From the UHGV virus genome UHGV-0314755: a stretch of DNA of 10,374 nucleotides, one strand, 5' to 3'. A program made the position numbers and the translations under genes. Below the pieces are notes generated by a model. It searched no databases. It was not told the origin of the DNA and saw only the letters and a list, made by a program, of their open reading frames with translations. How positions within the stretch are numbered: position 1 is the stretch's first letter; each line of letters starts with the position of its first letter. The DNA comes from a virus. Below, one piece after another: positions 1 to 10,374 of this stretch.

Positions 1-37
1 GTGGCGTGTTCAGCAGAAAACTCAGCTCAAGGAACAA

Positions 38-2170
38 ATGGGGCAGCAAGCATGGATAGGAAATATCGCTCAAAAATACAACGAGTTTCTTCAGGTTAAT
101 GGAGAGCCAGGGGATCTTGGTGGTGTGAGTCGTGCAATATCACATGGTAATTCATTGGATGCTCGTGGTTTACGTAATAATAACCCTGGTAATATTGAAG
201 CGAGCAAATCTAACCCGTGGGAAGGTCAGATCGGTAGCGATGGACGTTTTGCAACGTTTGCTACCCCTGAGCATGGAATCCGCGCGTTGGGTAAAAATAT
301 GTTGTCTTACCAGCGTCAAGGCTATGACACCGTTAGCGAGATTGTTAATCGCTATGCTCCGGCTAGTGATGGTAATAATACTGATGCTTATATTAGGGCA
401 TTGTGTGGTGAGCTTGGTGTTGGGGAGAATGATCAGCTTGATATCTCTAACCCAAAGACACTAGCTGCTTTATGTGCTGGGATTATTAAACACGAAAATG
501 GCAGTATGCCTTATAGCACCGAACAGCTTGAAACTGGTATCTCGGCAGCCCTTGGTCTAACTAACCTTGATTCACCTAAGCGTTATACGGGCAATGCGGC
601 ATTTGATGCTATGAGCCCTCAAATGCAAATACAGGCATTGAGGCAGGCTAATGAGCTGAGAAATCAGTACCGCCAGCAGTATGCGGACCAGCTTAGCACC
701 GTAGTTAAAGATGCATATTCAGCCCTTGATGAAGGATTGAAACCTGAGAAGTTACCTTCTGAGGACGATTTTATCCGGGCCAATGGTCCGCGCATTGGCG
801 CTATGAAGTGGAAGGATATGCAGGCGCAGATACAATATGGAGGTGTCATTGGTGCCGCTAAAGACCTCACTCCAGAAGGACGACAAGACATTCTTGAACG
901 TTTACGTCCACAGGATCCAAACGCTCCTGGATTTGCTGCTAACCAGCAACGCTGGGAGAAAATGCAGGCCAAATTTAAAGAGATGGATAGGGAGTGGGAG
1001 ATTCAGCAGGGAAGAAACAGGTTCGTGTCTTCAATGCAAAATAACTTCCCGCTGGACCCGAACGACAAAAACAATCAGGCAGCGGTAGACCGTTATTTCG
1101 CGCAGGATATCGCGCCTTCGTTTTCCATATCTGATCCGCAGAGCATCAATACACTGGTCACCGTCACAACTAAAAGCGGCATGATACCAACTCAGGTTAA
1201 AACAATGCTTAACAGTGGAGCAACATCAAGAGATCCTGCGCTGGTTGTCCCGATGGCAAAATTCTACGGTCAGTTATTCGATAATAATCCGGCGGCAGCG
1301 GCAACACTTGATAAAAGTACGATGGCATTTTACGGCAAGGTTTACGATTATTCCCGCGCTGGCGTGCCGGAGGATAAGGCTGTTGATATGGCTTACAGCC
1401 AGGTGTTCCAACAGGATGACCGAATGAAACAGATGCTTTCCACTGCCATGCGAGACAAAAAATATGTCGCGGCGAGGGCAACTGCTGCACAAAATAACGC
1501 CAGCAGTCTGACTTCCTTTGGTTCGTGGTCTCCGGATATTACCGATCCAGGAAAATCAAATGCGGCCTATCAGCGAGATTACCAGACAATTTACGATGCT
1601 AACTTTGTACAGACAGGTGGCGATGCAGAACAGGCTGAGAAAATGACCAATGCCATGATCAGAACCACCTGGGGAGTTTCTACGGTTAATGGCAAAGCAG
1701 AGGTTATGAAGTATGCACCTGAGGCATTGTACGGAGTAAATAATGGTGCTGGTAACTGGATACAGGGGCAGTGGGAGCAGGAAAAACGCGAGCTTAAATC
1801 AAAATCCTTTGGCGGTCCTCGCAGTGATACGGACTTAATACTTGTTTCTGATGGCCTTACGGCAAGGGATAGGAGTTATGCTGTTATGGTTTTACAGCCT
1901 GACGCAAACGGAGCGATAGAACCGAGAAATTATATTGGAGAAAATGGTCTCCCTGTTCGTTTCAAGCCGGATCAACTGACATCTCCAATGTACAGGCAAA
2001 CCATTCAGTTACAGCAACAGCGTGTTGATGAGGCTAGAGTGCGGAGAGAAGGCAATCCGCTGCCGCAGTTCAGCAATAAAGATGGATATACTCCTCCAGA
2101 TCTGACCAAACCATTCGGTTATGGTTCAGCCAATTACCTTCCGAGCAATATATACGCAGGGGGCAAATAA
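38..2170 (+). CDS. Phage internal virion / DNA-ejection (core) protein, 710 aa; the start may lie upstream of the window
   Basis: Long ORF with enteric-like composition. ATG at 38 is preceded by AAGGA (29-33), but the reading frame stays open back to base 2, so a 5' extension beyond the window cannot be excluded. Stop TAA (2168-2170) overlaps the next gene's ATG (TAATG), indicating translational coupling within a structural operon. Position just before a tailspike gene and size are typical of podovirus ejection/core proteins. The N-terminal ~100 aa contains a conserved-looking block (RGLRNNNPGNIE...GSDGRFATFATPEHGIRA). Product assignment is inference from context. Confidence 0.75.
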   Translation: MGQQAWIGNIAQKYNEFLQVNGEPGDLGGVSRAISHGNSLDARGLRNNNPGNIEASKSNPWEGQIGSDGRFATFATPEHGIRALGKNMLSYQRQGYDTVSEIVNRYAPASDGNNTDAYIRALCGELGVGENDQLDISNPKTLAALCAGIIKHENGSMPYSTEQLETGISAALGLTNLDSPKRYTGNAAFDAMSPQMQIQALRQANELRNQYRQQYADQLSTVVKDAYSALDEGLKPEKLPSEDDFIRANGPRIGAMKWKDMQAQIQYGGVIGAAKDLTPEGRQDILERLRPQDPNAPGFAANQQRWEKMQAKFKEMDREWEIQQGRNRFVSSMQNNFPLDPNDKNNQAAVDRYFAQDIAPSFSISDPQSINTLVTVTTKSGMIPTQVKTMLNSGATSRDPALVVPMAKFYGQLFDNNPAAAATLDKSTMAFYGKVYDYSRAGVPEDKAVDMAYSQVFQQDDRMKQMLSTAMRDKKYVAARATAAQNNASSLTSFGSWSPDITDPGKSNAAYQRDYQTIYDANFVQTGGDAEQAEKMTNAMIRTTWGVSTVNGKAEVMKYAPEALYGVNNGAGNWIQGQWEQEKRELKSKSFGGPRSDTDLILVSDGLTARDRSYAVMVLQPDANGAIEPRNYIGENGLPVRFKPDQLTSPMYRQTIQLQQQRVDEARVRREGNPLPQFSNKDGYTPPDLTKPFGYGSANYLPSNIYAGGK

Positions 2171-5100
2171 TGCCGATATATGAACAGAATCCTAAAGAGT
2201 TGCTTGGCGAGGATATTCAGCAAATAGCAGCACCTGATGACAGTAATTTCTATATGGAAACACCTTCTTTGCTTTCTGCTGTGAACCCATTTACCAGTGA
2301 TCAACGCGTTCAAAGGTCTAGACAAGCAGCATTTCGTATAGATAACACGCTGGGTAGCTTTATTGCCAGTGCTCCTTTCAGTCAGTTTGACAGGGTTGAA
2401 GGATATAACCCATTTGATAACGATGCAGCAGATATTAAAGGCTATGAAGATTTTGCAGATTCGTTTATCAACTCCGGTTCGCATGAAGAAACAATGGCAA
2501 TTAAACATCGAATCGATAAGCAAAGAACAGATAGAGAATATCTATCTGAAATGGGTGGTGCTGGTACTATTTCAAGCTTAGCAATGGGAATGATAGACCC
2601 GGTTAATGTGGCTGCAATGTTCATCCCTGTAGGGGCGGTAGCGCGTGGAGGAAGTATTGCTGAGACGGCAGGGCGTTTTGCCCTAGCGAATGCTGCTGGT
2701 GGGGGAGTATCAGAAGCCGCATTACAGGCCACTCAGGAAGCTCGCTCACCGATGGAGAGCGTATCGAACGTTGTTGTTGATGCTCTCGTTGGTGGGATCC
2801 TTGGTGCTGGTGCACAGCTACTTGCTGGACCTAGCGCGCGCGAGGCAGTGGTTAACTCAGTAGGTAATCATTTGCGAGGTATGGATTCTCCTCAAAGCAT
2901 TGGTGCAGCTCAGGTTTTCAATACCACACTCGATCAGGAACAGCTCGCTGGACTTGGACTTGCTAACAAAACGTTGAGTGTCACTCCTGCTGGCCGCTTG
3001 GCTCAATCACCATCTCTTGTCTCCCGTCAGATTAACCAGCAGCTTGCCGAAAATAACTATTTCTTCGCCAAAAATGATGAGGGGTTGGCTACGTTTACGG
3101 CAGTCGAGACTAAGATTAAGCAATACGACGCCATGCTTTATAAGCAGATGGAAGCCACTCGTGATGCTTACCAGCAGTACAGCAAATCTGTTAGCGCCCG
3201 CGGCGTGAAGAGGATGAGCTTTATTGATTTCAATGAAGCTGTTGGCATGGCTATGCGCCGTGGTGATCAGAGTGATATTCCTGAGGTTTCACAAGCAGCC
3301 GCCAGAATCCGCCCCATTTTCGAGACCACAAAAGCCCGTATGCAGGAACTGGGGATCCTTCCTGAGGATATCGATGTCGTGACGGCGAAAAGTTATCTTC
3401 CCCGCATTTATAAGTTCGATAAGATACTTTCCGACCGCACTGAATTCAGAGGGCGAATTGCCAACTGGATACAAGGGATTAGTGCCAAAGGTGCTGACAA
3501 AGCAGGTCAGCGAATTGAAAGGATAAATTCATTGCTAAAAACTGCAGAGGAATCGGCACCGCGCGCTGATGCTCTCGCTAGTGAAATCGCTGAAGCGGAG
3601 AAATGGTCTGGTAAAAAAATTCTACTTATGGAAGAACTGGATAAACGAAATAAGCTTATATCTCAGGAGACTGACACACAGGCGCGTCTTACAAGAATAG
3701 AAAAAGAGTTGGCCGAGACTTCATCAGAAAAACTTCAGGCAAGAATGATGAAAGAAAGCTCTGACCTTAAAACACGCCTTGATGATATAGCGCAGGCAAA
3801 GAGTGAGCTTCCTGTCTATCAGCGCCATATGGAGTTGCTGGATAATCCACGGAAATATCGTTCTGAGCTTCGCCGACTGCAAAAACGGGCAAATTCAACC
3901 ACAAGGCTGAATGCAAGCCGCGAACGAGCACTGAAGCAGATGGAGCCTCTATCCCGAGAGGAAGCAGAGGACGCTGCTGACGAGATCGTGAATAAAATAA
4001 TAGGCGCACCTTCCGGGCTTGTACCAGCCGATATTATCCCAGAGAGACTCGTTGGTCGGGCTGGTTTCACTAAAAGCAGAACGCTGCTTATTCCTGATGA
4101 GCGTATAGAAGATTTTCTTGAATCAGATGTTAACTACATCATGGAAAGTTATCTCCGGCAGGTGGCACCAGAAATTGAGCTGACTGCGCAGTTTGGCCGT
4201 AAAGATATGGGGGAGCAAATCCGTCAGGTTAGTGAGGAATATACCCGGCTAATAAAAGAGGCTAAAACACCTAAACGACGTGCAGTTCTTGAGAAGCAAC
4301 GGGAGGCTGATATTAGGGATATTACGGCTATGCGTGATCGACTGCTTGGTACTTACGGTGCACCTCAAGATCCACGCAGTTTCTTTGTTCGTGCCGGGCG
4401 AGTTGCTAGGAATATTAACTTCCTCCGTTTGCTTGGTGGAATGACTGTCTCCGCTGCAACTGATCTGATGCGACCGATGATGCAGCATGGCCTGAGAAAA
4501 TCTCTCGGACCAATGGTAAGCATGCTTAAAAATATGGACTCAGTGAAAATTGCAACCAGGGATTTGCGAGAAATGGCCGTTGGGCTTGATTATGTCCTGT
4601 CTACGCGTACAAAGGCTATAGCGGATCTTACTGACCCCTATAGCCGGAGAAGCGCCGCTGAGCGAGGTCTGAACTGGATGACGCAGAAATTCGGTAACTG
4701 GACGCTGATGAATCAGTGGAACAGCGCACTTAAATCATGGTCCGGGATGATAGTGCAGTCGAGGATACTTGACGCGGCTCGCCAAGTTTCTGCTGGTGGC
4801 ACGCTCTCCAAAAGTGAAATGCGGAAGATGGCACAGGTCGGCATCAATGAAGATGTTCTGCGCCGAATCGGGGAGCAATTCGGGAAGCACGGAGAGGATA
4901 TGGACGGGCTGTTAACCGGGCATAGTCATCTGTGGGATGACCGTTTCGCTAGAGAGATTTTCCAGTCTGCAGTGCTGAAAGATGTAGACTCAGTGATTGT
5001 AACGCCTGGCGTAGGTGATACACCGCTGTTTTTTAGTAAAGAAGGCTGGAAGATGATCACGCAGTTCAAAACGTTTATCTTCGCACAGCATAACAGGGTG

Positions 5101-5559
5101 CTAGTATCTGGTATCCAGCAGGGCGATGCTGCATTCTATCTTGGTGCGCTTGGCACGATTGCGCTTGGCTCAATGGTCTATATGATGAAACAGAAGTTAA
5201 GCGGTCGCGATATCGACTACAGCTGGAATAACCTTGTGAAAGAGGGGATCGACCGGGGCGGAATGCTTGGCTGGCTCTCTGAGCCGCTGAATACCGTTGA
5301 GAACATAAGCGGCGGTAGGTTTGGTCTTGGCGCGATGTTTGGTGCGCCTCCGGTATCAAGGTTTCAGAGTCGTAATGCTATTGGTGCTTTACTTGGTCCT
5401 ACCTTTGATCTTGGCGGTGATGCCGCGACGGTTGCGAATGGTGTACTTAACGGAGAATTTGACAGCCAGCAAACCCACGCGGTCCGTAAAATGCTACCTT
5501 TTCAGAACCTGTGGGCGATATCACCGTTACTAAATAAAGTTGAAGAGCAGATGAAATAG
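2170..5559 (+). CDS. Large phage internal virion / ejection protein (ejectosome or tail-hub-like), 1129 aa
   Basis: ATG at 2170 overlaps the upstream stop; SD AGGGGG (2158-2163) with a 6-nt spacer. The protein has Gly/Ala-rich hydrophobic segments (about aa 128-215, e.g. GGAGTISSLAMGMIDPVNVAAMFIPVGAVARGG and VVVDALVGGILGAGAQLLAG), a long charged heptad-like region (about aa 435-610, rich in E/K/R/L/Q) and a second hydrophobic patch near aa 990-1020. This composition is typical of channel-forming ejection proteins. Function is inferred, not shown by search. Confidence 0.8.
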   Translation: MPIYEQNPKELLGEDIQQIAAPDDSNFYMETPSLLSAVNPFTSDQRVQRSRQAAFRIDNTLGSFIASAPFSQFDRVEGYNPFDNDAADIKGYEDFADSFINSGSHEETMAIKHRIDKQRTDREYLSEMGGAGTISSLAMGMIDPVNVAAMFIPVGAVARGGSIAETAGRFALANAAGGGVSEAALQATQEARSPMESVSNVVVDALVGGILGAGAQLLAGPSAREAVVNSVGNHLRGMDSPQSIGAAQVFNTTLDQEQLAGLGLANKTLSVTPAGRLAQSPSLVSRQINQQLAENNYFFAKNDEGLATFTAVETKIKQYDAMLYKQMEATRDAYQQYSKSVSARGVKRMSFIDFNEAVGMAMRRGDQSDIPEVSQAAARIRPIFETTKARMQELGILPEDIDVVTAKSYLPRIYKFDKILSDRTEFRGRIANWIQGISAKGADKAGQRIERINSLLKTAEESAPRADALASEIAEAEKWSGKKILLMEELDKRNKLISQETDTQARLTRIEKELAETSSEKLQARMMKESSDLKTRLDDIAQAKSELPVYQRHMELLDNPRKYRSELRRLQKRANSTTRLNASRERALKQMEPLSREEAEDAADEIVNKIIGAPSGLVPADIIPERLVGRAGFTKSRTLLIPDERIEDFLESDVNYIMESYLRQVAPEIELTAQFGRKDMGEQIRQVSEEYTRLIKEAKTPKRRAVLEKQREADIRDITAMRDRLLGTYGAPQDPRSFFVRAGRVARNINFLRLLGGMTVSAATDLMRPMMQHGLRKSLGPMVSMLKNMDSVKIATRDLREMAVGLDYVLSTRTKAIADLTDPYSRRSAAERGLNWMTQKFGNWTLMNQWNSALKSWSGMIVQSRILDAARQVSAGGTLSKSEMRKMAQVGINEDVLRRIGEQFGKHGEDMDGLLTGHSHLWDDRFAREIFQSAVLKDVDSVIVTPGVGDTPLFFSKEGWKMITQFKTFIFAQHNRVLVSGIQQGDAAFYLGALGTIALGSMVYMMKQKLSGRDIDYSWNNLVKEGIDRGGMLGWLSEPLNTVENISGGRFGLGAMFGAPPVSRFQSRNAIGALLGPTFDLGGDAATVANGVLNGEFDSQQTHAVRKMLPFQNLWAISPLLNKVEEQMK

Positions 5560-6000
5560 CTATTCACAATTAGTGATGGCGTATGTATCAAATATATTGC
5601 CATCACTAAATACATACCTATACTCAATCTCTCCGCCAAGGTGAATAAATGCTTTCATTTGCCTGTTGGAGCAAATGCTCGATTTTGAATAATTTCGCAT
5701 TACACTCTTTAATTTATTTTCTAAGGTTACATCACCATTATAAACTTTTGATAAATAGCTGTTGTTGTAATTAAGATGCGCTACAACTAAGAGTTTGTTT
5801 AGTATTGCATTTATTGAAACAATAGACATATTATCATTCAATTTTATGGGAAGTGACTTTCCTGCTTCTGATGCAATTTTGTTTGCATGTGCACACATAT
5901 CCTCATTTATTAAATTCTTAAAACATATGTCGTTTGCAAACGAAAAAATTGGTAGGATAAACAAAACGGTAGCTGTAATAGCGTGCATCGGCTTAATCAT
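5560..6000 (-). CDS. Small secreted (periplasmic) protein of unknown function, 146 aa; AT-rich cargo gene
   Basis: Only long ORF in a strongly AT-rich segment. N-terminus MIKPMHAITATVLFILPIFSFA/ND has the shape of a Sec signal peptide (positive n-region, hydrophobic core, A-x-A-like cleavage site). The mature part has 4 Cys and is N/K/I/S-rich. An AAGG motif lies 7 nt upstream of the ATG at 6000 (minus strand). The stop (5560-5562) abuts the stop of the 1129-aa gene on the other strand. No recognised family. Confidence 0.5.
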   Translation of the reverse strand: MIKPMHAITATVLFILPIFSFANDICFKNLINEDMCAHANKIASEAGKSLPIKLNDNMSIVSINAILNKLLVVAHLNYNNSYLSKVYNGDVTLENKLKSVMRNYSKSSICSNRQMKAFIHLGGEIEYRYVFSDGNIFDTYAITNCE

Positions 6001-6012
6001 TAGGTGACCTTT

Positions 6013-6462
6013 ATGTTCAAGAAGATGATCAACAGATTAATCGGTGGTAAGGAGGTTAGCAATAAAATTCAACCTCTTATCTTTAAGGATAACTTTTCAG
6101 CTTTTGAGTATGCGTGTAAGTATCTTGACACAAGCCTTTCAGCCAATAAACCAATGCCAGCCATCATCATACCTGGTCCCAGTGGGGAACAGCCAGTTTT
6201 GCTGGATTCTGGAAGACAAAGGGCAATGCTGAAGGTGTGCTCAGCTGATGGTGGATTTTTTGTTATTGCCGATTCATCTTACAGCAAAGGACCAAAGCTG
6301 AGGATTGGTGATCTTGTTGCTTGGTTGCCTGTGAGTTATGCCGAAGAATTAACGGATAAAATAGAAGATCCTCGCTCCGCTATGGTTGGCTTTATATTGG
6401 GAACCATTCATCCTGAACTAACATCTACTGGCTGGAAGGGTAAAGAAAGATTTCGCAAGTAG
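6013..6462 (+). CDS. Hypothetical cytoplasmic protein, 149 aa (cargo gene)
   Basis: ORF open from GTG 6004; the preferred start is ATG 6013, with SD AGGTGA (6002-6007) and a 5-nt spacer. Ends TAG at 6460-6462 and is followed immediately by an intrinsic terminator. No TM segment or signal peptide. No recognisable family by eye. Confidence 0.6.
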   Translation: MFKKMINRLIGGKEVSNKIQPLIFKDNFSAFEYACKYLDTSLSANKPMPAIIIPGPSGEQPVLLDSGRQRAMLKVCSADGGFFVIADSSYSKGPKLRIGDLVAWLPVSYAEELTDKIEDPRSAMVGFILGTIHPELTSTGWKGKERFRK

Positions 6463-6475
6463 CGTGACATGTCAC

Positions 6476-6500
6476 AGGCCGCTTTCGCGGCCTTGTTTTT
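6476..6500 (+). terminator. Rho-independent terminator for the plus-strand transcript (after the 149-aa gene)
   Basis: 7-bp GC-rich stem AGGCCGC/GCGGCCT with loop TTTC (6476-6493), followed by TGTTTTT (6494-6500). It is preceded by a perfect 12-bp palindrome, GTGACATGTCAC (6464-6475). Confidence 0.7.
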
Positions 6501-6537
6501 AACGAATGCCACCGCCGCCCGGGTGGGAATCCGCAGA

Positions 6538-6563
6538 CACAAAAAAGCCCGCGCCGCGGGCTT
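6538..6563 (-). terminator. Rho-independent terminator for the minus-strand transcript (after the 210-aa gene); with the previous feature it forms a convergent terminator pair
   Basis: Palindrome AAGCCCGCG-C-CGCGGGCTT (6545-6563) followed on the minus strand by a T-run (plus-strand AAAAAA at 6541-6546). It lies 4 nt downstream of the TAA stop of the 210-aa gene (6567-6569, minus). Confidence 0.7.
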
Positions 6564-6566
6564 CTA

Positions 6567-7199
6567 TTAATGCAGTTTATCTTTGCTTATAACCAGTAGT
6601 CTGTGGGTATGCACATCTTTATCACTGCCCCAACAGAAATCAGCCCACTGGCTATAGAAATCATCCCATGATGTCATGAAGCTAAGAGGTCTATCTTCTT
6701 CAGAGCCATCTGAAACGTATACATTATATCCCGGGGTGTTTATAGCCCAAGAAATCATTCTTTCCCAGAATCTTCTCCCATCGATTGTTTGTTGCTCATC
6801 AGATACAACGATCGCATATTGCTCTAGGAAGAACTGAAAAAAAATCTGAGGCAAACCATGAACAGCACGGTCATGAATAACATTAGGCGTACGCCATACC
6901 ATGATCTGCGTACATGTTCTTTTGGCTTCGACGATATCTTCCCGAAAGATTAACTTAACCGCATACACCGTTTCTGGAGTATCGCTGGTAGTAATCATTC
7001 TGTAATGATCGCCATTACAAGATTTTACAAGGCGATAACCATAAGGTGTTGTGAATCCCGGAAGAACGAAATCAACCACACCTTTCGCTAAGTAGCTTTC
7101 GGTGTGACTAGTGTTCTTCTCAGACATGTTCAGTTTTCTATCGAAATCTGCTTCTGGGATAATGTATGGCATCGCTTTTCTTGTTGTATTTGTTTTCAT
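6567..7199 (-). CDS. Hypothetical protein, 210 aa (orphan cargo gene, Trp/aromatic-rich C-terminus)
   Basis: Strong SD GGGAGGA 5 nt upstream of ATG 7199 (minus strand). Clean ORF ending at a good terminator. No TM segment or signal peptide. Operator copy 1 (TTACC-N5-GGTAA) lies 60 bp upstream, overlapping a TAATAT -10-like hexamer. No family recognised; an R-x5-H motif (RTPNVIH) is noted but is too short to interpret. Confidence 0.7.
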   Translation of the reverse strand: MKTNTTRKAMPYIIPEADFDRKLNMSEKNTSHTESYLAKGVVDFVLPGFTTPYGYRLVKSCNGDHYRMITTSDTPETVYAVKLIFREDIVEAKRTCTQIMVWRTPNVIHDRAVHGLPQIFFQFFLEQYAIVVSDEQQTIDGRRFWERMISWAINTPGYNVYVSDGSEEDRPLSFMTSWDDFYSQWADFCWGSDKDVHTHRLLVISKDKLH

Positions 7200-7258: not shown

Positions 7259-7273
7259 TTACCCGTAAGGTAA
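7259..7273. promoter_or_regulatory. Operator copy 1: palindrome TTACC-cgtaa-GGTAA upstream of the 210-aa gene
   Basis: Exact TTACC(N5)GGTAA. It overlaps a candidate minus-strand -10 (TAATAT, 7278-7273), with a weak -35-like TTGGCG 18 bp further upstream (7302-7297). It is one of three copies in the window, all in non-coding regions upstream of or between minus-strand genes. Confidence 0.5.
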
Positions 7274-7315
7274 TATTACGCGAATCTACATCACATCGCC
7301 AATGATTATTTTAAA

Positions 7316-7331
7316 GGCACATCCCTGTGCC
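7316..7331 (-). terminator. Possible weak terminator or stem-loop just downstream of the antirepressor gene
   Basis: 6-bp stem GGCACA/TGTGCC with loop TCCC, starting 8 nt after the ant stop (7339-7341). The following minus-strand sequence is TTTAAAATAAT, a poor U-tract, hence low confidence. Confidence 0.3.
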
Positions 7332-7338
7332 GCCGCCG

Positions 7339-8049
7339 TCAGAAGAACCCTGCCTTGTCGTTGATGTACTCCGCGTGCGTCTGGATATCACGCAGGCATT
7401 TGCTCACACCGACGATGTAGCAGAACATGGTGGTCAGCTCCGCCGCCGCGCCCGATACGTCGTGCCCGTCTTCCTGTAACTGGTTCAGCAGATTCATCAG
7501 CAGTGAGTTTTCCGTCAGGCCGAGAACACCAGACGGAGAATGAATCAGGCTGCGGTAGCCGGGCTTCAGTGGGGCGCTGTAGGTTTTGTTCTCTATCTTC
7601 ATTGCCTGCATCACTGCTGATGCTGTGGCGTTGGCTACCTGGTCGGCAACCATCTTTATGCGTTCTTCCTGCGGGAGCGAGTTTTTAATGTAACTTCCTG
7701 TGCGGCGGATCTGAGGAAGAACCTCACCTGTAACCCATTTACGAAAGCGGTAGGGGATAGTGCCTGGTGTTACTGCATCGCGGCAGCGGAGGATCAGTGT
7801 GTAGAGGCCTGACTCGGAGATGATGTTGATCTCTTTTACTCGGCTGTCAAAAATTGCACGATGTTCATGCCCTATGTTGAACATAGACCTTTCATCATCA
7901 TCCAGTTTTTCAAGTGATTGGGTGACGTTTTGGATACGCAGCGCACTACAAACGTCTTGGGCTACAAACCATGGTTGGCCATCGATAATGATGGAACGGA
8001 TAGGGTTAACAGATTCAAATTTGAAGATGGCAGTTTGAGCATTAGCCAT
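7339..8049 (-). CDS. ant: Phage antirepressor, 236 aa: Bro-N-type N-terminal domain plus Ant-type C-terminal domain
   Basis: N-terminus MANAQTAIFKFESVNPIRSIIIDGQPWFVAQDVCSALRI matches the Bro-N / P22-antirepressor N-terminal signature (F.F....IR....DG.PWFVA.DVC..L). Preferred start is ATG 8049, with SD GGAGA and an 8-nt spacer; the ORF track's extension to 8064 uses a GTG with no SD. The C-terminal ~65 aa are about 45% identical to the 85-aa protein encoded at 8365-8622. Confidence 0.85.
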   Translation of the reverse strand: MANAQTAIFKFESVNPIRSIIIDGQPWFVAQDVCSALRIQNVTQSLEKLDDDERSMFNIGHEHRAIFDSRVKEINIISESGLYTLILRCRDAVTPGTIPYRFRKWVTGEVLPQIRRTGSYIKNSLPQEERIKMVADQVANATASAVMQAMKIENKTYSAPLKPGYRSLIHSPSGVLGLTENSLLMNLLNQLQEDGHDVSGAAAELTTMFCYIVGVSKCLRDIQTHAEYINDKAGFF

Positions 8050-8060
8050 GGTGGTTATCT

Positions 8061-8145
8061 CCACTTAGTGATTTTAATCACCACCGCAACGCCAATTACT
8101 GGTGGTGAACTGGACAAGGTTGGCGTACCGGCCTAAGTGGTACCG
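8061..8145 (-). promoter_or_regulatory. Candidate promoter/operator region of the antirepressor gene
   Basis: Minus-strand -10-like TAAAAT (8076-8071), about 20 nt upstream of the ant start region. An 8-bp inverted repeat, TCACCACC (8078-8085) / GGTGGTGA (8101-8108), sits over the -35 region. The 8-mer CCACTTAG occurs at 8061-8068 and 8234-8241, and inverted (CTAAGTGG) at 8133-8140. GTACCGGC is directly repeated at 8125-8132 and 8140-8147. Promoter assignment is tentative. Confidence 0.35.
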
Positions 8146-8205
8146 GCGTCCTTTCGGACCCCTGCCCAGCCCACCATAATTCGGATATAGCTGTGCTTAA
8201 CGCAT

Positions 8206-8228
8206 AAAAAAACCACGTCTGGCGTGGT
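8206..8228 (-). terminator. Rho-independent terminator on the minus strand, between the small Ant-like gene and the antirepressor gene
   Basis: Minus strand reads ACCACG-CCAGA-CGTGGT followed by TTTTTTT (plus-strand A7 at 8206-8212). It lies downstream of two further hairpins (8247-8262 and 8262-8283). Confidence 0.55.
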
Positions 8229-8302
8229 ATGCGCCACTTAGTAACTCGGGACGCCAATCCCGGCACTGGATTTTGCCAGTGCCCGATTACTATGGCACAA
8301 GA

Positions 8303-8346
8303 GGAGTGCAATGTAAATTTACCGCAAAGGTAAATATAAGCACTCC
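8303..8346. promoter_or_regulatory. Operator copy 2: TTACC-gcaaa-GGTAA (8319-8333) embedded in a longer imperfect palindrome
   Basis: Exact TTACC(N5)GGTAA core, flanked by the inverted 7-mers GGAGTGC (8303-8309) and GCACTCC (8340-8346). It lies 19 bp downstream of the small Ant-like gene's stop and about 270 bp upstream of the ant start. Confidence 0.5.
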
Positions 8347-8364
8347 ATTTGGTAATTGCAAACC

Positions 8365-8622
8365 TTATCTGGTTTGTTTTCGTAATTGTTCGGCACAATA
8401 GTCGAGATGTGTTTGCAGATCCTGCATAGACATCTGTGAGCTGGTGACGTAGTTAATCAGTGCAGTCAGTTCGGCAAGTGGGCCATCGACATTAAATCCA
8501 TCCTTATCGAGATCCCGGAGTAATTTCATCAAGTGCGATCCCTCCACCAGTGACCTGACGCCTCCCGGCGTGTGAATCCTTTCGGTAAATCCGTCTTCCA
8601 GTGGATAGTGATACTGCTGCAT
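8365..8622 (-). CDS. Small antirepressor-like protein, 85 aa: free-standing homolog of the Ant C-terminal domain, probably SOS-controlled
   Basis: Preferred start ATG 8622 (SD GGAG, 8-nt spacer); the ORF track's start at 8637 has no SD and would leave only 7 bp between the start codon and the LexA box. The sequence TERIHTPGGVRSLVEGSHLMKLLRDLDKDGFNVDGPLAELT...DLQTHLDY aligns with the ant product's LIHSPSGVLGLTENSLLMNLLNQLQEDGHDVSGAAAELT...DIQTHAEY. A near-consensus LexA box lies immediately upstream. Confidence 0.75.
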   Translation of the reverse strand: MQQYHYPLEDGFTERIHTPGGVRSLVEGSHLMKLLRDLDKDGFNVDGPLAELTALINYVTSSQMSMQDLQTHLDYCAEQLRKQTR

Positions 8623-8642
8623 CTTAATCTTCTCCATGCAAT

Positions 8643-8662
8643 AACTGTATGTTTATACAGTA
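8643..8662. promoter_or_regulatory. LexA (SOS) box upstream of the small Ant-like gene
   Basis: AACTGTATGTTTATACAGTA matches the E. coli LexA consensus TACTGTATATATATACAGTA at 17 of 20 positions, with CTGT-N8-ACAG intact. It overlaps a TATAAA -10-like hexamer on the minus strand and is the only such box in the window. Confidence 0.8.
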
Positions 8663-8699
8663 GCAAATAATTTGTTTGCTATCCAGCACGTTTTGCAAA

Positions 8700-8714
8700 T
8701 TACCTGAAAGGTAA
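8700..8714. promoter_or_regulatory. Operator copy 3: TTACC-tgaaa-GGTAA in the divergent region between the small Ant-like gene and the tailspike gene
   Basis: Exact TTACC(N5)GGTAA, preceded by the palindrome TTTGCAAA (8692-8699). It lies about 80 bp upstream of the small gene's start and about 105 bp upstream of the tailspike ATG. Confidence 0.5.
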
Positions 8715-8818
8715 TATCTATTCATATTCACAGTCTTTCTATCCATATGTGGTTTTTCAGGTAATAGAATAACCAGATATGCGGCGCAACGGGTGCTGCG
8801 ACTATCTGGAGATTTAAC

Positions 8819-10374
8819 ATGACGGTCTCAACCAAAGTTGACCACAACGAATACACAGGTAACGGCGTTACGACATCGTTTCCGTATACTTTTCGAATTT
8901 TCAGAAAATCAGACCTGGTTGTTCAGGTGTCTGACCTGAACGGGAACGTAACAGAATTGGTTCTGGATACCGGTTATACGGTAATTGGGGTGGGAGCTTA
9001 TAGTGGTGGTACAGTGGTTCTTCCGTCGCCGCTTGCTGCTGGCTGGCGAATCACTATAGAGCGTGTGCTTGATGTGGTGCAGGAGACTGACCTTCGAAAT
9101 CAGGGGAATTTTTTTCCAGAAGTTCATGAGGATGCATTTGACTACCTGACGATGCTGATTCAGCAGTCTTTTTCTGGTCTATCTCTTGCACTCAGAAAGC
9201 CATCACGTTTATCAAATTATTATGATGCTCGTGATAACAGAATCCAAAACTTAGCAAGCCCAATTCTCCCGAACGATGGTGTAAACCGTAATTTTGTAGA
9301 AAACCTTTTTATTGATAAAAGCGCATCTGCTTCTGCATTGCGCTCTTTGCTGGAAAGCGCAGCTGGGGCTGGAATAATTGGTACATTGCAGGGATTAACC
9401 GTTCAGTCAGTTTTAGATAATGTAAAAATCCCACTGACGTCATTCGTGTTTTCTATTCCTGATGATTTTGCTAATGCAGATTCTTTAGCAGAATATCTTG
9501 AAAATAGATGCTATACCGGCACGCAAGTAATAGTACATGTCTCAGCAGGCACTCATAATTGGAATACTCTAAATAAGATTTTTGGGAAAGAGTGGGGTTT
9601 TGGCCGACTTAAATTTGTTGGTGAAGGAATGGATTTGACAATTATTCAGTTTCTTAAACAGGACGGAATTTATGCTGAAGCAGGTGAGTGTTATGGTCAT
9701 GCGCCACAGTTTCCCGTGAGTGGTGGTGATATAATACCAATATTTAGTAATTTAACTATATCAGGAATTGACAGAGATTCAGGAATTGATGATCCATATC
9801 TTGATTCAATGGGGATAAGGGCGTTTGACGGCGGTGTTGTTGTACTTGATGAAAGCGTAAGAATAACTCAGTTTTCCAGGTGTGGAGTTATGGCTGAGAG
9901 GCATGGTATAGCTTTTGTTCCTGGGGTTAAAGTCGATACTACAGGTTCTGATTGTTTCGCTGCCTCTGAAGGTGGTTATATCTATTGTCCAGACTCTACA
10001 GCAAGCAACCCGAAAGGTCATTGCTACATCGCATATTCTGGAGGGCAGCTTTATATGCCTAACTGTATTGCCCAGAATGCAGAGACACACAACTCGTCAA
10101 ATGTAGGGGGATCTGGTCTTGTGTTGACCGGAAGCAGTTACGCTTACGCTATTAATCTTCAAACTAAAAACAATGCTCAACGTGGAATTAGTGTGGCGTT
10201 AGGGTCTTTTCTACGAGCTGACGGGTTTACTGAGAGTGAAAATATTCTACCTGTGACTGTTTCGCAGGGTTCCACGTTGGTTTCTCCAAATTGCACAATA
10301 AACAAACCAGATGCTCTTGCGCTTTTAATTGAGAAAGGAGGAAAGGCATTTTTCCAGGTAGCAACAACTGATAA
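8819..10374 (+). CDS. Tailspike protein, 5'-partial view (518+ aa; runs off the window end), with an epsilon15/Det7-type conserved N-terminal particle-binding domain
   Basis: Not in the supplied ORF track because no stop falls within the window; I translated it by hand from ATG 8819 (SD GGAG 8808-8811) and found it open to the end. N-terminus MTVSTKVDHNEYTGNGVTTSFPYTFRIFRKSDLVVQV...ETDLRNQG...LTMLIQQ matches, from memory, the conserved N-terminal domain shared by tailspikes of epsilon15-like and related enterobacterial phages. The downstream part is lower in GC and not recognisable. Confidence 0.88.
   Translation, partial: MTVSTKVDHNEYTGNGVTTSFPYTFRIFRKSDLVVQVSDLNGNVTELVLDTGYTVIGVGAYSGGTVVLPSPLAAGWRITIERVLDVVQETDLRNQGNFFPEVHEDAFDYLTMLIQQSFSGLSLALRKPSRLSNYYDARDNRIQNLASPILPNDGVNRNFVENLFIDKSASASALRSLLESAAGAGIIGTLQGLTVQSVLDNVKIPLTSFVFSIPDDFANADSLAEYLENRCYTGTQVIVHVSAGTHNWNTLNKIFGKEWGFGRLKFVGEGMDLTIIQFLKQDGIYAEAGECYGHAPQFPVSGGDIIPIFSNLTISGIDRDSGIDDPYLDSMGIRAFDGGVVVLDESVRITQFSRCGVMAERHGIAFVPGVKVDTTGSDCFAASEGGYIYCPDSTASNPKGHCYIAYSGGQLYMPNCIAQNAETHNSSNVGGSGLVLTGSSYAYAINLQTKNNAQRGISVALGSFLRADGFTESENILPVTVSQGSTLVSPNCTINKPDALALLIEKGGKAFFQVATTD

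Follow-up and report, generated by a model that had tools for sequence, protein, structure and literature searches.

The closest described counterpart of the locus analysed here is the Ant/Rep/LexA switch of Salmonella phage SPC32H, which was reportedly described by Kim & Ryu in 2013 (J Virol) and by Kim et al. in 2016 (PNAS), with PDB entries 5D50 and 5D4Z. According to two citing papers, the SPC32H Ant protein is tetrameric, binds two dimers of Rep, and disrupts the Rep tetramer that binds DNA (PMC9638917), acting via the C-terminal tetramerisation domain of Rep (PMC9986798). A review adds that several Salmonella prophages, SPC32H included, are induced by LexA-controlled antirepressors (PMC7380047). 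The statements on SPC32H made in this text are drawn from its PDB entry, its GenBank annotation, and the citing papers.

An arrangement similar to the one described below, with a LexA box, then a small antirepressor gene, and a target repressor that is uncleaved, is that of Tum, the antirepressor of CI in phage 186, a P2-like myovirus. Tum has 146 amino acids, with a DinI-like half (PMC3121763). GfoA/GftA/GfhA of Gifsy-1/-2/-3 resemble the protein studied here in being small, LexA-controlled, and encoded outside the immunity region, with repressors that are uncleaved (PMC3121763; Lemire et al. 2011), and AntC of N15 is, with Tum, GfoA, and GftA, its functional analogue (PMC3121763). Antirepressor genes preceded by small RNA elements are represented by the P1/P7 immI region (c4, icd, ant) and by isrK-orf45-anrP of Gifsy-1, an experimentally studied locus (PMC4825925).

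The stretch of DNA analysed here (the window) is 10,374 nucleotides of the UHGV virus genome UHGV-0314755. It belongs to an E. coli prophage or temperate podovirus resembling epsilon15 and phiV10 (Uetakevirus-type). Phage EC.W1-9 matches positions 1-6537 at 98.2% and phage HEMP4 matches positions 7259-9164 at 96.7%, while the closest complete prophage, located at guaA in E. coli DEC9B, shows 99.0% identity over 79% of the window. The region is matched in 535 of 5426 complete E. coli genomes, which include O157, O103, and other pathogenic lineages. The rep gene is absent from the window itself. The main genes are the following:

38-5559, plus strand: two large internal virion (ejection) protein genes
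5560-7199: block of small genes of unknown function, after the ejection-protein genes
7199..6567, minus strand: 210-aa gene of unknown function
8049..7339, minus strand: Bro-N antirepressor gene, then two small RNA genes and the 85-aa gene, also on the minus strand
8820 (start), plus strand: tailspike gene, divergent from the 85-aa gene

An antirepressor region between ejection-protein and tailspike genes is also found, as is generally known, in the temperate podovirus P22, where immI (ant, arc, mnt, sar) occupies this place and ant is controlled at the RNA level. The P22 proteins, however, are different, the repressors there are Mnt and Arc and not LexA, and the c2 repressor is RecA-cleavable.

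The 85-aa gene, its upstream elements, and the operator-like sites of the window are as follows:

8365..8622, minus strand: ant, predicted 85-aa small antirepressor, with stop codon (ATG 8622-8620, TAA 8367-8365)
8632..8635, minus strand: Shine-Dalgarno GGAG of ant, 9 nt before the ATG, invariant in 10/10 relatives
8643..8662, no strand assigned: LexA (SOS) box, AACTGTATGTTTATACAGTA, which in the ant sense is TACTGTATAAACATACAGTT
8657..8685, minus strand: predicted ant promoter, with -35 TGGATA (8685-8680), a 17-nt spacer, -10 TACTGT (8662-8657), and a predicted start near 8650
8700..8714, no strand assigned: ATTACC-N5-GGTAAT palindrome TTACCTGAAAGGTAA, probable Rep operator in the ant/tailspike intergenic region
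8319..8333, no strand assigned: second probable Rep operator, 1 nt upstream of the -35 element of the isrK promoter
7259..7273, no strand assigned: third probable Rep operator, upstream of the 210-aa gene

The 85-aa product shows 88% identity to SPC32H_020 ('ant: anti-repressor protein') in a tblastn comparison spanning residues 7-89 of a 90-aa reading of the gene, and it is matched to chain E of PDB 5D50 ('Anti-repressor protein') by phmmer at E=4.4e-47. The proposal, made in a preliminary description of this DNA, that the protein be compared with known small Ant proteins has thus led to a close relative. The two proteins are of nearly the same length (85 vs 86 aa) and their genes lie in the same slot on the same strand; this slot, between the internal-virion-protein genes and the tailspike and on the strand opposite to them, is common to SPC32H_020, epsilon15 gp19, and phiV10 p24 (PhiV10p24). 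Because of the 88% identity, the shared genomic slot, and the shared LexA box, the 85-aa gene is identified as the very ortholog of SPC32H ant. A longer reading of 90 aa, from an in-frame ATG at 8637, was rejected: in nine other phages a 1-nt difference takes this ATG out of frame, so the conserved product has 85 aa.

The Ant family consists of 85-86-aa proteins, almost all from Enterobacteriaceae and metagenome contigs, most of which are named 'hypothetical protein'; this is also the RefSeq name of the gene in question. The product matches PHROG 450 (E=9e-48), which is labelled 'unknown function'. Pfam assigns no family to the small protein (a sub-threshold DUF724 match, at 17.4 bits vs a cut-off of 38.4, was dismissed as spurious), NCBIfam gives no match to it, and PADLOC gives none for the three cargo ORFs. 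The dN/dS ratio of ant, calculated against SPC32H, epsilon15, Tyrion, and BUCT554, is ~0.06, with dS of 1.4-2.3 and saturated synonymous sites, which points to strong purifying selection on the protein. Ten epsilon15/phiV10-like phages, from E. coli, Salmonella, Enterobacter, and Klebsiella, were compared upstream of the gene. Despite the saturation at synonymous sites, all ten show little or no variation in the two halves of the LexA box, in the Shine-Dalgarno sequence, in a CTGGA(T/A)A block, and in the ATTACC-N5-GGTAA palindrome. The kinship of the product to the C-terminal domain of the adjacent antirepressor, claimed earlier, is confirmed: the 85-aa protein and residues 155-228 of the Bro-N protein share 42% identity (E=9e-16).

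The sequence AACTGTATGTTTATACAGTA agrees with the LexA consensus TACTGTATATATATACAGTA at 17/20 positions and contains a perfect CTGT-N8-ACAG core. As stated in the preliminary description, it lies directly upstream of the small gene, with a gap of 20 nt between the end of the box and the ATG; it is the sole such match in the window (8643-8662), and none of 200 dinucleotide shuffles produced a match of this kind. Matrix scoring, which had also been suggested, sets the site clearly apart: on an approximate, symmetrised matrix of 28 E. coli SOS boxes, it reaches 26.9 bits (heterology index 1.8), above all 28 matrix boxes in a leave-one-out comparison, vs 7.3 bits for the runner-up in the window. 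When the complete genomes of SPC32H and phiV10 are scored with this matrix, the homologous box is the sole site to exceed 11 bits. The box is kept at the same position in 10/10 relatives, although it is weaker in three Klebsiella phages (heterology index 8-9). In SPC32H both the box, with its distance from the ATG, and the ATTACC-N5-GGTAAT site upstream of it are the same as here.

For the ant promoter, we infer the hexamers at 8657..8685. The -10 element TACTGT coincides with the first half of the LexA box, TGGATA lies in the conserved CTGGATA block, and both hexamers and their 17-nt spacing are kept across relatives. They are weak matches, and a scan with the promoter consensus did not call them. 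TTGCAA (8698-8693) was considered as the -35 element, on the model of isrK, where an operator is followed by TTTACA, and was rejected, as no conserved -10 is present at 16-18 nt. The predicted geometry is shared with p95 of phage 186, the SOS-dependent promoter before tum, in which the annotated -10 is formed by the first 6 nt of the box TACTGTATGTTTATACAGTA. The p95 box is identical to that of epsilon15, and its reverse complement is one base off the window box in the ant sense.

The likeness to phage 186 ends at the proteins. Homology between Ant and Tum is not detectable (16.5 bits, E=0.061, in a single BLASTP comparison), and the small Ant was therefore rejected as a Tum homolog. Phage 186 is absent from the tblastn matches of the small Ant in the phage collection, where only epsilon15-like relatives were returned. 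The Gifsy antirepressors, in turn, are encoded in an operon downstream of a dinI homologue, whereas nothing dinI-like is found at this locus. By sequence, the small Ant belongs only to the SPC32H Ant family. The assignment to an antirepressor of the SPC32H, 186, or Gifsy type, put forward in the preliminary description, thus stands in respect to orthology with SPC32H and to a Tum-like function, but not in respect to Tum homology.

An operator-like TTACC-N5-GGTAA motif had likewise been pointed out at ant, and a perfect copy is indeed present there (8700-8714). The window holds three perfect copies, while 0.17 would be expected even with one mismatch allowed, and 0/200 shuffles gave three. Perfect copies flank rep on both sides in SPC32H, phiV10, HEMP4, epsilon15, and the DEC9B prophage, and in four relatives scanned further copies head other operons, late ones included. 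In total, perfect copies number 8-11 per ~39-kb phage genome, against an expectation far below one. In phiV10, the motif overlaps the -35 and the spacer of the rightward early promoter, while the leftward early promoter has one motif across its -10 and another near -62. Such sites are labelled 'protein_bind: repressor' in the GenBank record of epsilon15, including one upstream of gp19, the ant homolog; this is an annotation and not an experiment. From its clustering around rep in four relatives, TTACC-N5-GGTAA is very probably the Rep operator. The dispersed arrangement of these sites is reminiscent of P1 C1.

The Rep of the DEC9B prophage is 100% identical to phiV10 Rep and matches chain A of 5D50 ('Repressor') over its full length (E=4e-42). 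In a Pfam search with phiV10 Rep, only HTH domains are found and no S24 peptidase domain. By these matches, the closest complete prophage encodes, like SPC32H, an SPC32H-type Rep, with two HTH regions and without a self-cleavage domain. The lack of an S24 domain fits a repressor that RecA cannot make self-cleave. The earlier supposition that the main repressor is not RecA-cleavable agrees with this, and the DEC9B Rep supports the interpretation of the locus as an SOS-antirepressor system. The similarity to SPC32H is lower for the partner than for Ant: Rep proteins of the phiV10 and SPC32H types are only 42% identical, vs 88% for Ant between these phages, so that binding of Ant to a phiV10-type Rep is an extrapolation.

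Taken with these comparisons, it is very probable that the 85-aa gene encodes Ant, an SOS-gated antirepressor of an epsilon15/phiV10-like E. coli prophage, which would be kept off by LexA and would inactivate Rep once made. In the undamaged lysogen, host LexA would occupy the box at 8643-8662, over the predicted -10 and the start site, and ant would be silent. DNA damage would activate RecA, LexA would undergo self-cleavage, and ant would be transcribed. By analogy with the 88%-identical SPC32H ortholog, the Ant tetramer would then bind the C-terminal domain of Rep and dismantle the Rep tetramer, releasing it from the ATTACC-N5-GGTAAT operators and derepressing the lytic genes. If Rep acts on the site at 8700-8714, its removal could also exert positive feedback. 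In this phage, we infer both the binding of LexA at the box and the binding of Rep by Ant. The small Ant need not be the sole or the main inducer, since a second protein with an Ant domain adjoins it.

This second protein belongs to a module of the P1 immI/Gifsy-1 isrK type, located directly downstream of ant:

8289..8317, minus strand: predicted promoter of isrK/C4/second antirepressor gene, TTTACA, 17 nt, (TGc)CATAGT, with +1 at ~8282, matching position 1 of the Rfam isrK model
8206..8295, minus strand: IsrK-like RNA, with a1 (8258-8251), b1 (8242-8234), and an intrinsic terminator (8228-8212) followed by a U run
8098..8181, minus strand: C4-type antisense RNA, with a' (8126-8120) and b' (8140-8133), Rfam C4 66 bits (gathering 45)
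8061..8096, minus strand: leader targets a2 (8096-8089) and b2 (8069-8061), which repeat a1/b1
7339..8049, minus strand: second antirepressor gene, 236 aa, with an N-terminal Bro-N domain fused to an Ant-like C-terminal domain

The IsrK-like RNA scores 67.2 bits with the Rfam isrK model (gathering 50), and the c4-a1b1 model gives 44.3 bits, just below its gathering value of 46.7. The 236-aa protein contains a Pfam Bro-N domain (69.6 bits, cut-off 25.6), and its C-terminal part matches 5D50 chain E (E=1.2e-13). It shows 81% identity to ORF4 of phage ZX5 and is identical to it over the last ~160 aa; overexpression of ORF4 lowered lysogeny ~1000-fold (PMC9782041). The study of ZX5, a close coliphage relative, deals with the Bro-N protein only and mentions neither LexA nor SPC32H (PMC9782041), and the small ant was overlooked in it.

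The a' and b' segments of C4 are unpaired in its minimum-free-energy fold and have exact complements of 7-9 nt in a1/b1 and a2/b2. Across the window, phiV10, Tyrion, and KpST512, the a/a'/a2 segments covary, and likewise b/b'/b2, with the a-type sets GGCGT/ACGCC vs GGTCT/AGACC vs GAGAC/GTCTC and the b-type sets AAGTGG vs AAAAGG vs ACAAAGG. In Kp4865 the covariation is seen for a1/a' and b1/b' only, the leader being beyond the fetched locus. Covariation of this kind across the phages marks a functional antisense system of the P1 immI type that exists in several specificities. RNAduplex energies of C4 with its targets are not clearly separated from those with shuffled targets, so the antisense case relies on the covariation. 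The order IsrK/a1b1, C4, and a2/b2 before an antirepressor gene is that of P1/P7 immI and of Gifsy-1 isrK-orf45-anrP. Unlike in these two loci, b2 here overlaps the Shine-Dalgarno of the Bro-N antirepressor gene itself (GGAG, 8062-8059), and no obvious icd/orf45-like ORF is present; none that is convincing was read between C4 and the ATG at 8049. In addition, and in contrast to both P1/P7 immI and Gifsy-1, the antirepressor carries an SPC32H-Ant-like C-terminal domain, a LexA-gated ant lies upstream, and a Rep operator flanks the promoter.

In SPC32H, ant is followed by a terminator, whereas here none was found and the second antirepressor module follows. Between the stop codon of ant and the IsrK terminator, nothing resembling a terminator was detected; there is only a weaker hairpin, which surrounds the second operator (-21.7 kcal/mol, z=-2.5). 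SOS-driven transcription could therefore read into the RNA module. With Rep-type operators at or near all three promoters of the locus, the region might be seen not as a single SOS switch but as an antirepressor hub with three inputs, in which tandem, paralogous Rep-binding Ant domains are gated by LexA on one side and, for the domain fused to Bro-N, by an IsrK/C4 pair with phage-specific recognition sequences on the other; we put this forward as a tentative possibility, on balance a doubtful one. If it were true, the Rep operators would provide positive feedback once some Rep is removed, leading to all-or-none induction, and the specificity of C4 would link SOS induction to superinfection immunity.

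The Bro-N protein also bears on the target of the small Ant. Since antirepressor action in trans is documented for Gifsy and Fels prophages (PMC3121763), the small Ant could be LexA-controlled and yet act mainly on related Reps of co-resident prophages, leaving the protein with the Bro-N and Ant-like domains as the cognate antirepressor. Such a role would suit the 88% conservation of Ant between phages whose Reps share 42%, the fusion of a paralogous Ant domain (42% identity) to the adjoining Bro-N, and the ~1000-fold effect on lysogeny of the overexpressed, near-identical ZX5 ORF4. The Bro-N/C4 module, however, is absent from SPC32H, epsilon15, BUCT554, and BUCT711, which have the small Ant only. 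The small Ant is thus better regarded as the ancestral core inducer, and the module as an optional extension of the core LexA-Ant switch. In phiV10, moreover, the annotation splits the Bro-N gene in two (194 aa and 29 aa) while the small ant is intact, and strong purifying selection acts on the small gene and its box in every lineage. An action chiefly in trans is, in our estimation, unlikely, and the small Ant is retained as the probable SOS-gated antirepressor of its own prophage.

In respect to the control of the small Ant, the operator at 8700-8714 has to be considered together with the LexA box. It is centred near -57, about 50-64 bp upstream of the predicted ant start, in the intergenic region shared with the tailspike gene, and it may serve either ant or the divergent tailspike gene. 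No convincing sigma-70 promoter of the tailspike gene overlapping this operator was found. A conserved TAGAAT (8765-8770), beside a GGTAA half-site, is a candidate tailspike promoter element. The dual control by LexA and a phage repressor suggested in the preliminary description is therefore upheld as far as the motif is very probably a Rep operator, while the position of the copy leaves the control of ant by both proteins, with the positive feedback it would give, as a possibility. In a stronger form of this idea, ant would be ruled chiefly by Rep through this site, with the LexA box as a minor modulator, for which FsoA, an antirepressor controlled by the Fels-1 repressor, is a precedent (PMC3121763). 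The retention of the operator in 10/10 relatives and the presence of Rep-type operators at both other minus-strand promoters of the locus would be in line with such control. Nevertheless, the operator near -57 is outside the core promoter, whereas the LexA box covers the -10 and the +1. It also carries one mismatch (GGTGA) in phiV10, HEMP4, and the DEC9B prophage, in which the LexA box stays strong, and the site may belong to the divergent tailspike promoter, as the motif precedes late operons elsewhere. Predominant control by Rep is accordingly judged very improbable, and LexA remains the preferred regulator of ant.

That the LexA-like palindrome and the small ORF are chance or decaying remnants without function, a view to which the lack of a Pfam or NCBIfam family and the RefSeq name 'hypothetical protein' might lend themselves, has a negligible probability and is already contradicted by the absence of such a box from 200 shuffles, the dN/dS of 0.06, the retention of the region in 10/10 phages and its match in 535/5426 complete E. 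coli genomes, and the solved structure of the ortholog.

In general, the LexA-Ant-Rep switch is already known from SPC32H, with its structure solved, and the present locus is an ordinary example of it that introduces no new principle. What is new is the occurrence of an unannotated ortholog in phiV10-like coliphages, in tandem with a paralogous antirepressor gated by RNA. The 85-aa gene, named only as hypothetical so far, thereby gains a correct annotation, in a region matched by ~1 in 10 complete E. coli genomes. Its identity as the ortholog of SPC32H Ant explains how these prophages can respond to DNA-damaging antibiotics without a cleavable repressor.

The antirepressor region of the window contains a complete immI-like module, placed as follows.

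8049-8333, minus strand: complete immI-like module

The elements of the module follow one another in the order Rep operator (probable), promoter (predicted), IsrK/a1b1 RNA, C4 antisense RNA, a2/b2 leader and Bro-N antirepressor gene. Covariation of the a and b recognition sequences is seen among phages of E. coli, Enterobacter and Klebsiella and implies that there are several antisense 'immunity' specificities.

The second probable Rep operator of the window is embedded in a longer palindrome (8303-8346). In phiV10 the arms of this palindrome (L004, 20485-20523) are perfect over 17 bp (GAGTGCTTATATTTACC...GGTAAATATAAGCACTC). One arm is changed both in HEMP4 and in the window, and since the change generates the TTTACA -35 element, the isrK promoter may differ from lineage to lineage.

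In the public records of ZX5, phiV10 and the DEC9B prophage, the C4 RNA gene is carried as a protein, and no IsrK or C4 annotation was found in the records of these three examined:

ZX5 (L015), 2658-2771: C4 RNA region, annotated as an 'ash family protein' CDS
phiV10 (L002), 3901-3968: C4 RNA region, annotated as 'similar to hypothetical protein SF0880'
DEC9B (L016), 28219-28488: C4 RNA region, overlapped by a hypothetical CDS

Two ORFs (194 and 29 aa) are annotated for the Bro-N antirepressor in phiV10 (L002, 4074-4753); the gene may be disrupted there, and the small ant gene of this phage is intact.

The stretch at 5560-7199 looks like a cargo (moron) hotspot. Its content is variable, with a YafO toxin-antitoxin pair in DEC9B and other genes in ZX5. 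In the window the slot is occupied by three ORFs:

within 5560-7199, minus strand: 146-aa ORF, PHROG match of unknown function
within 5560-7199, plus strand: 152-aa ORF, PHROG match of unknown function
within 5560-7199, minus strand: 210-aa ORF, PHROG match of unknown function

The PHROGs matched are 8772, 9944 and 1349, respectively, and none of the three ORFs gave a hit above threshold in Pfam, NCBIfam or PADLOC. The Rep-type operator at 7259-7273 belongs to the 210-aa gene.

On the other side of the module, the tailspike gene of the window shares no more than about its initial 350 nt (window 8820-9170) with HEMP4 and the E. coli prophages, and the similarity stops beyond them, as is usual where an exchangeable receptor-binding part is attached to a conserved head-binding domain. 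A conserved TAGAAT lies immediately 3' of a lone GGTAA half-site (window 8760-8770, plus strand), 50 nt 5' of the tailspike ATG; this TAGAAT is a candidate -10 element of the tailspike promoter, accompanied by a possible Rep half-site.

When the whole relatives were scanned, ATTACC-N5-GGTAAT sites, which in the window lie at 7259, 8319 and 8700, were found flanking rep and also elsewhere: they head the operons for terminase, portal and replication, as well as the lysis operon of epsilon15. The half-site is identical between relatives, although their Reps are only 42% identical. This distribution suggests a dispersed operator network resembling that of P1 C1.
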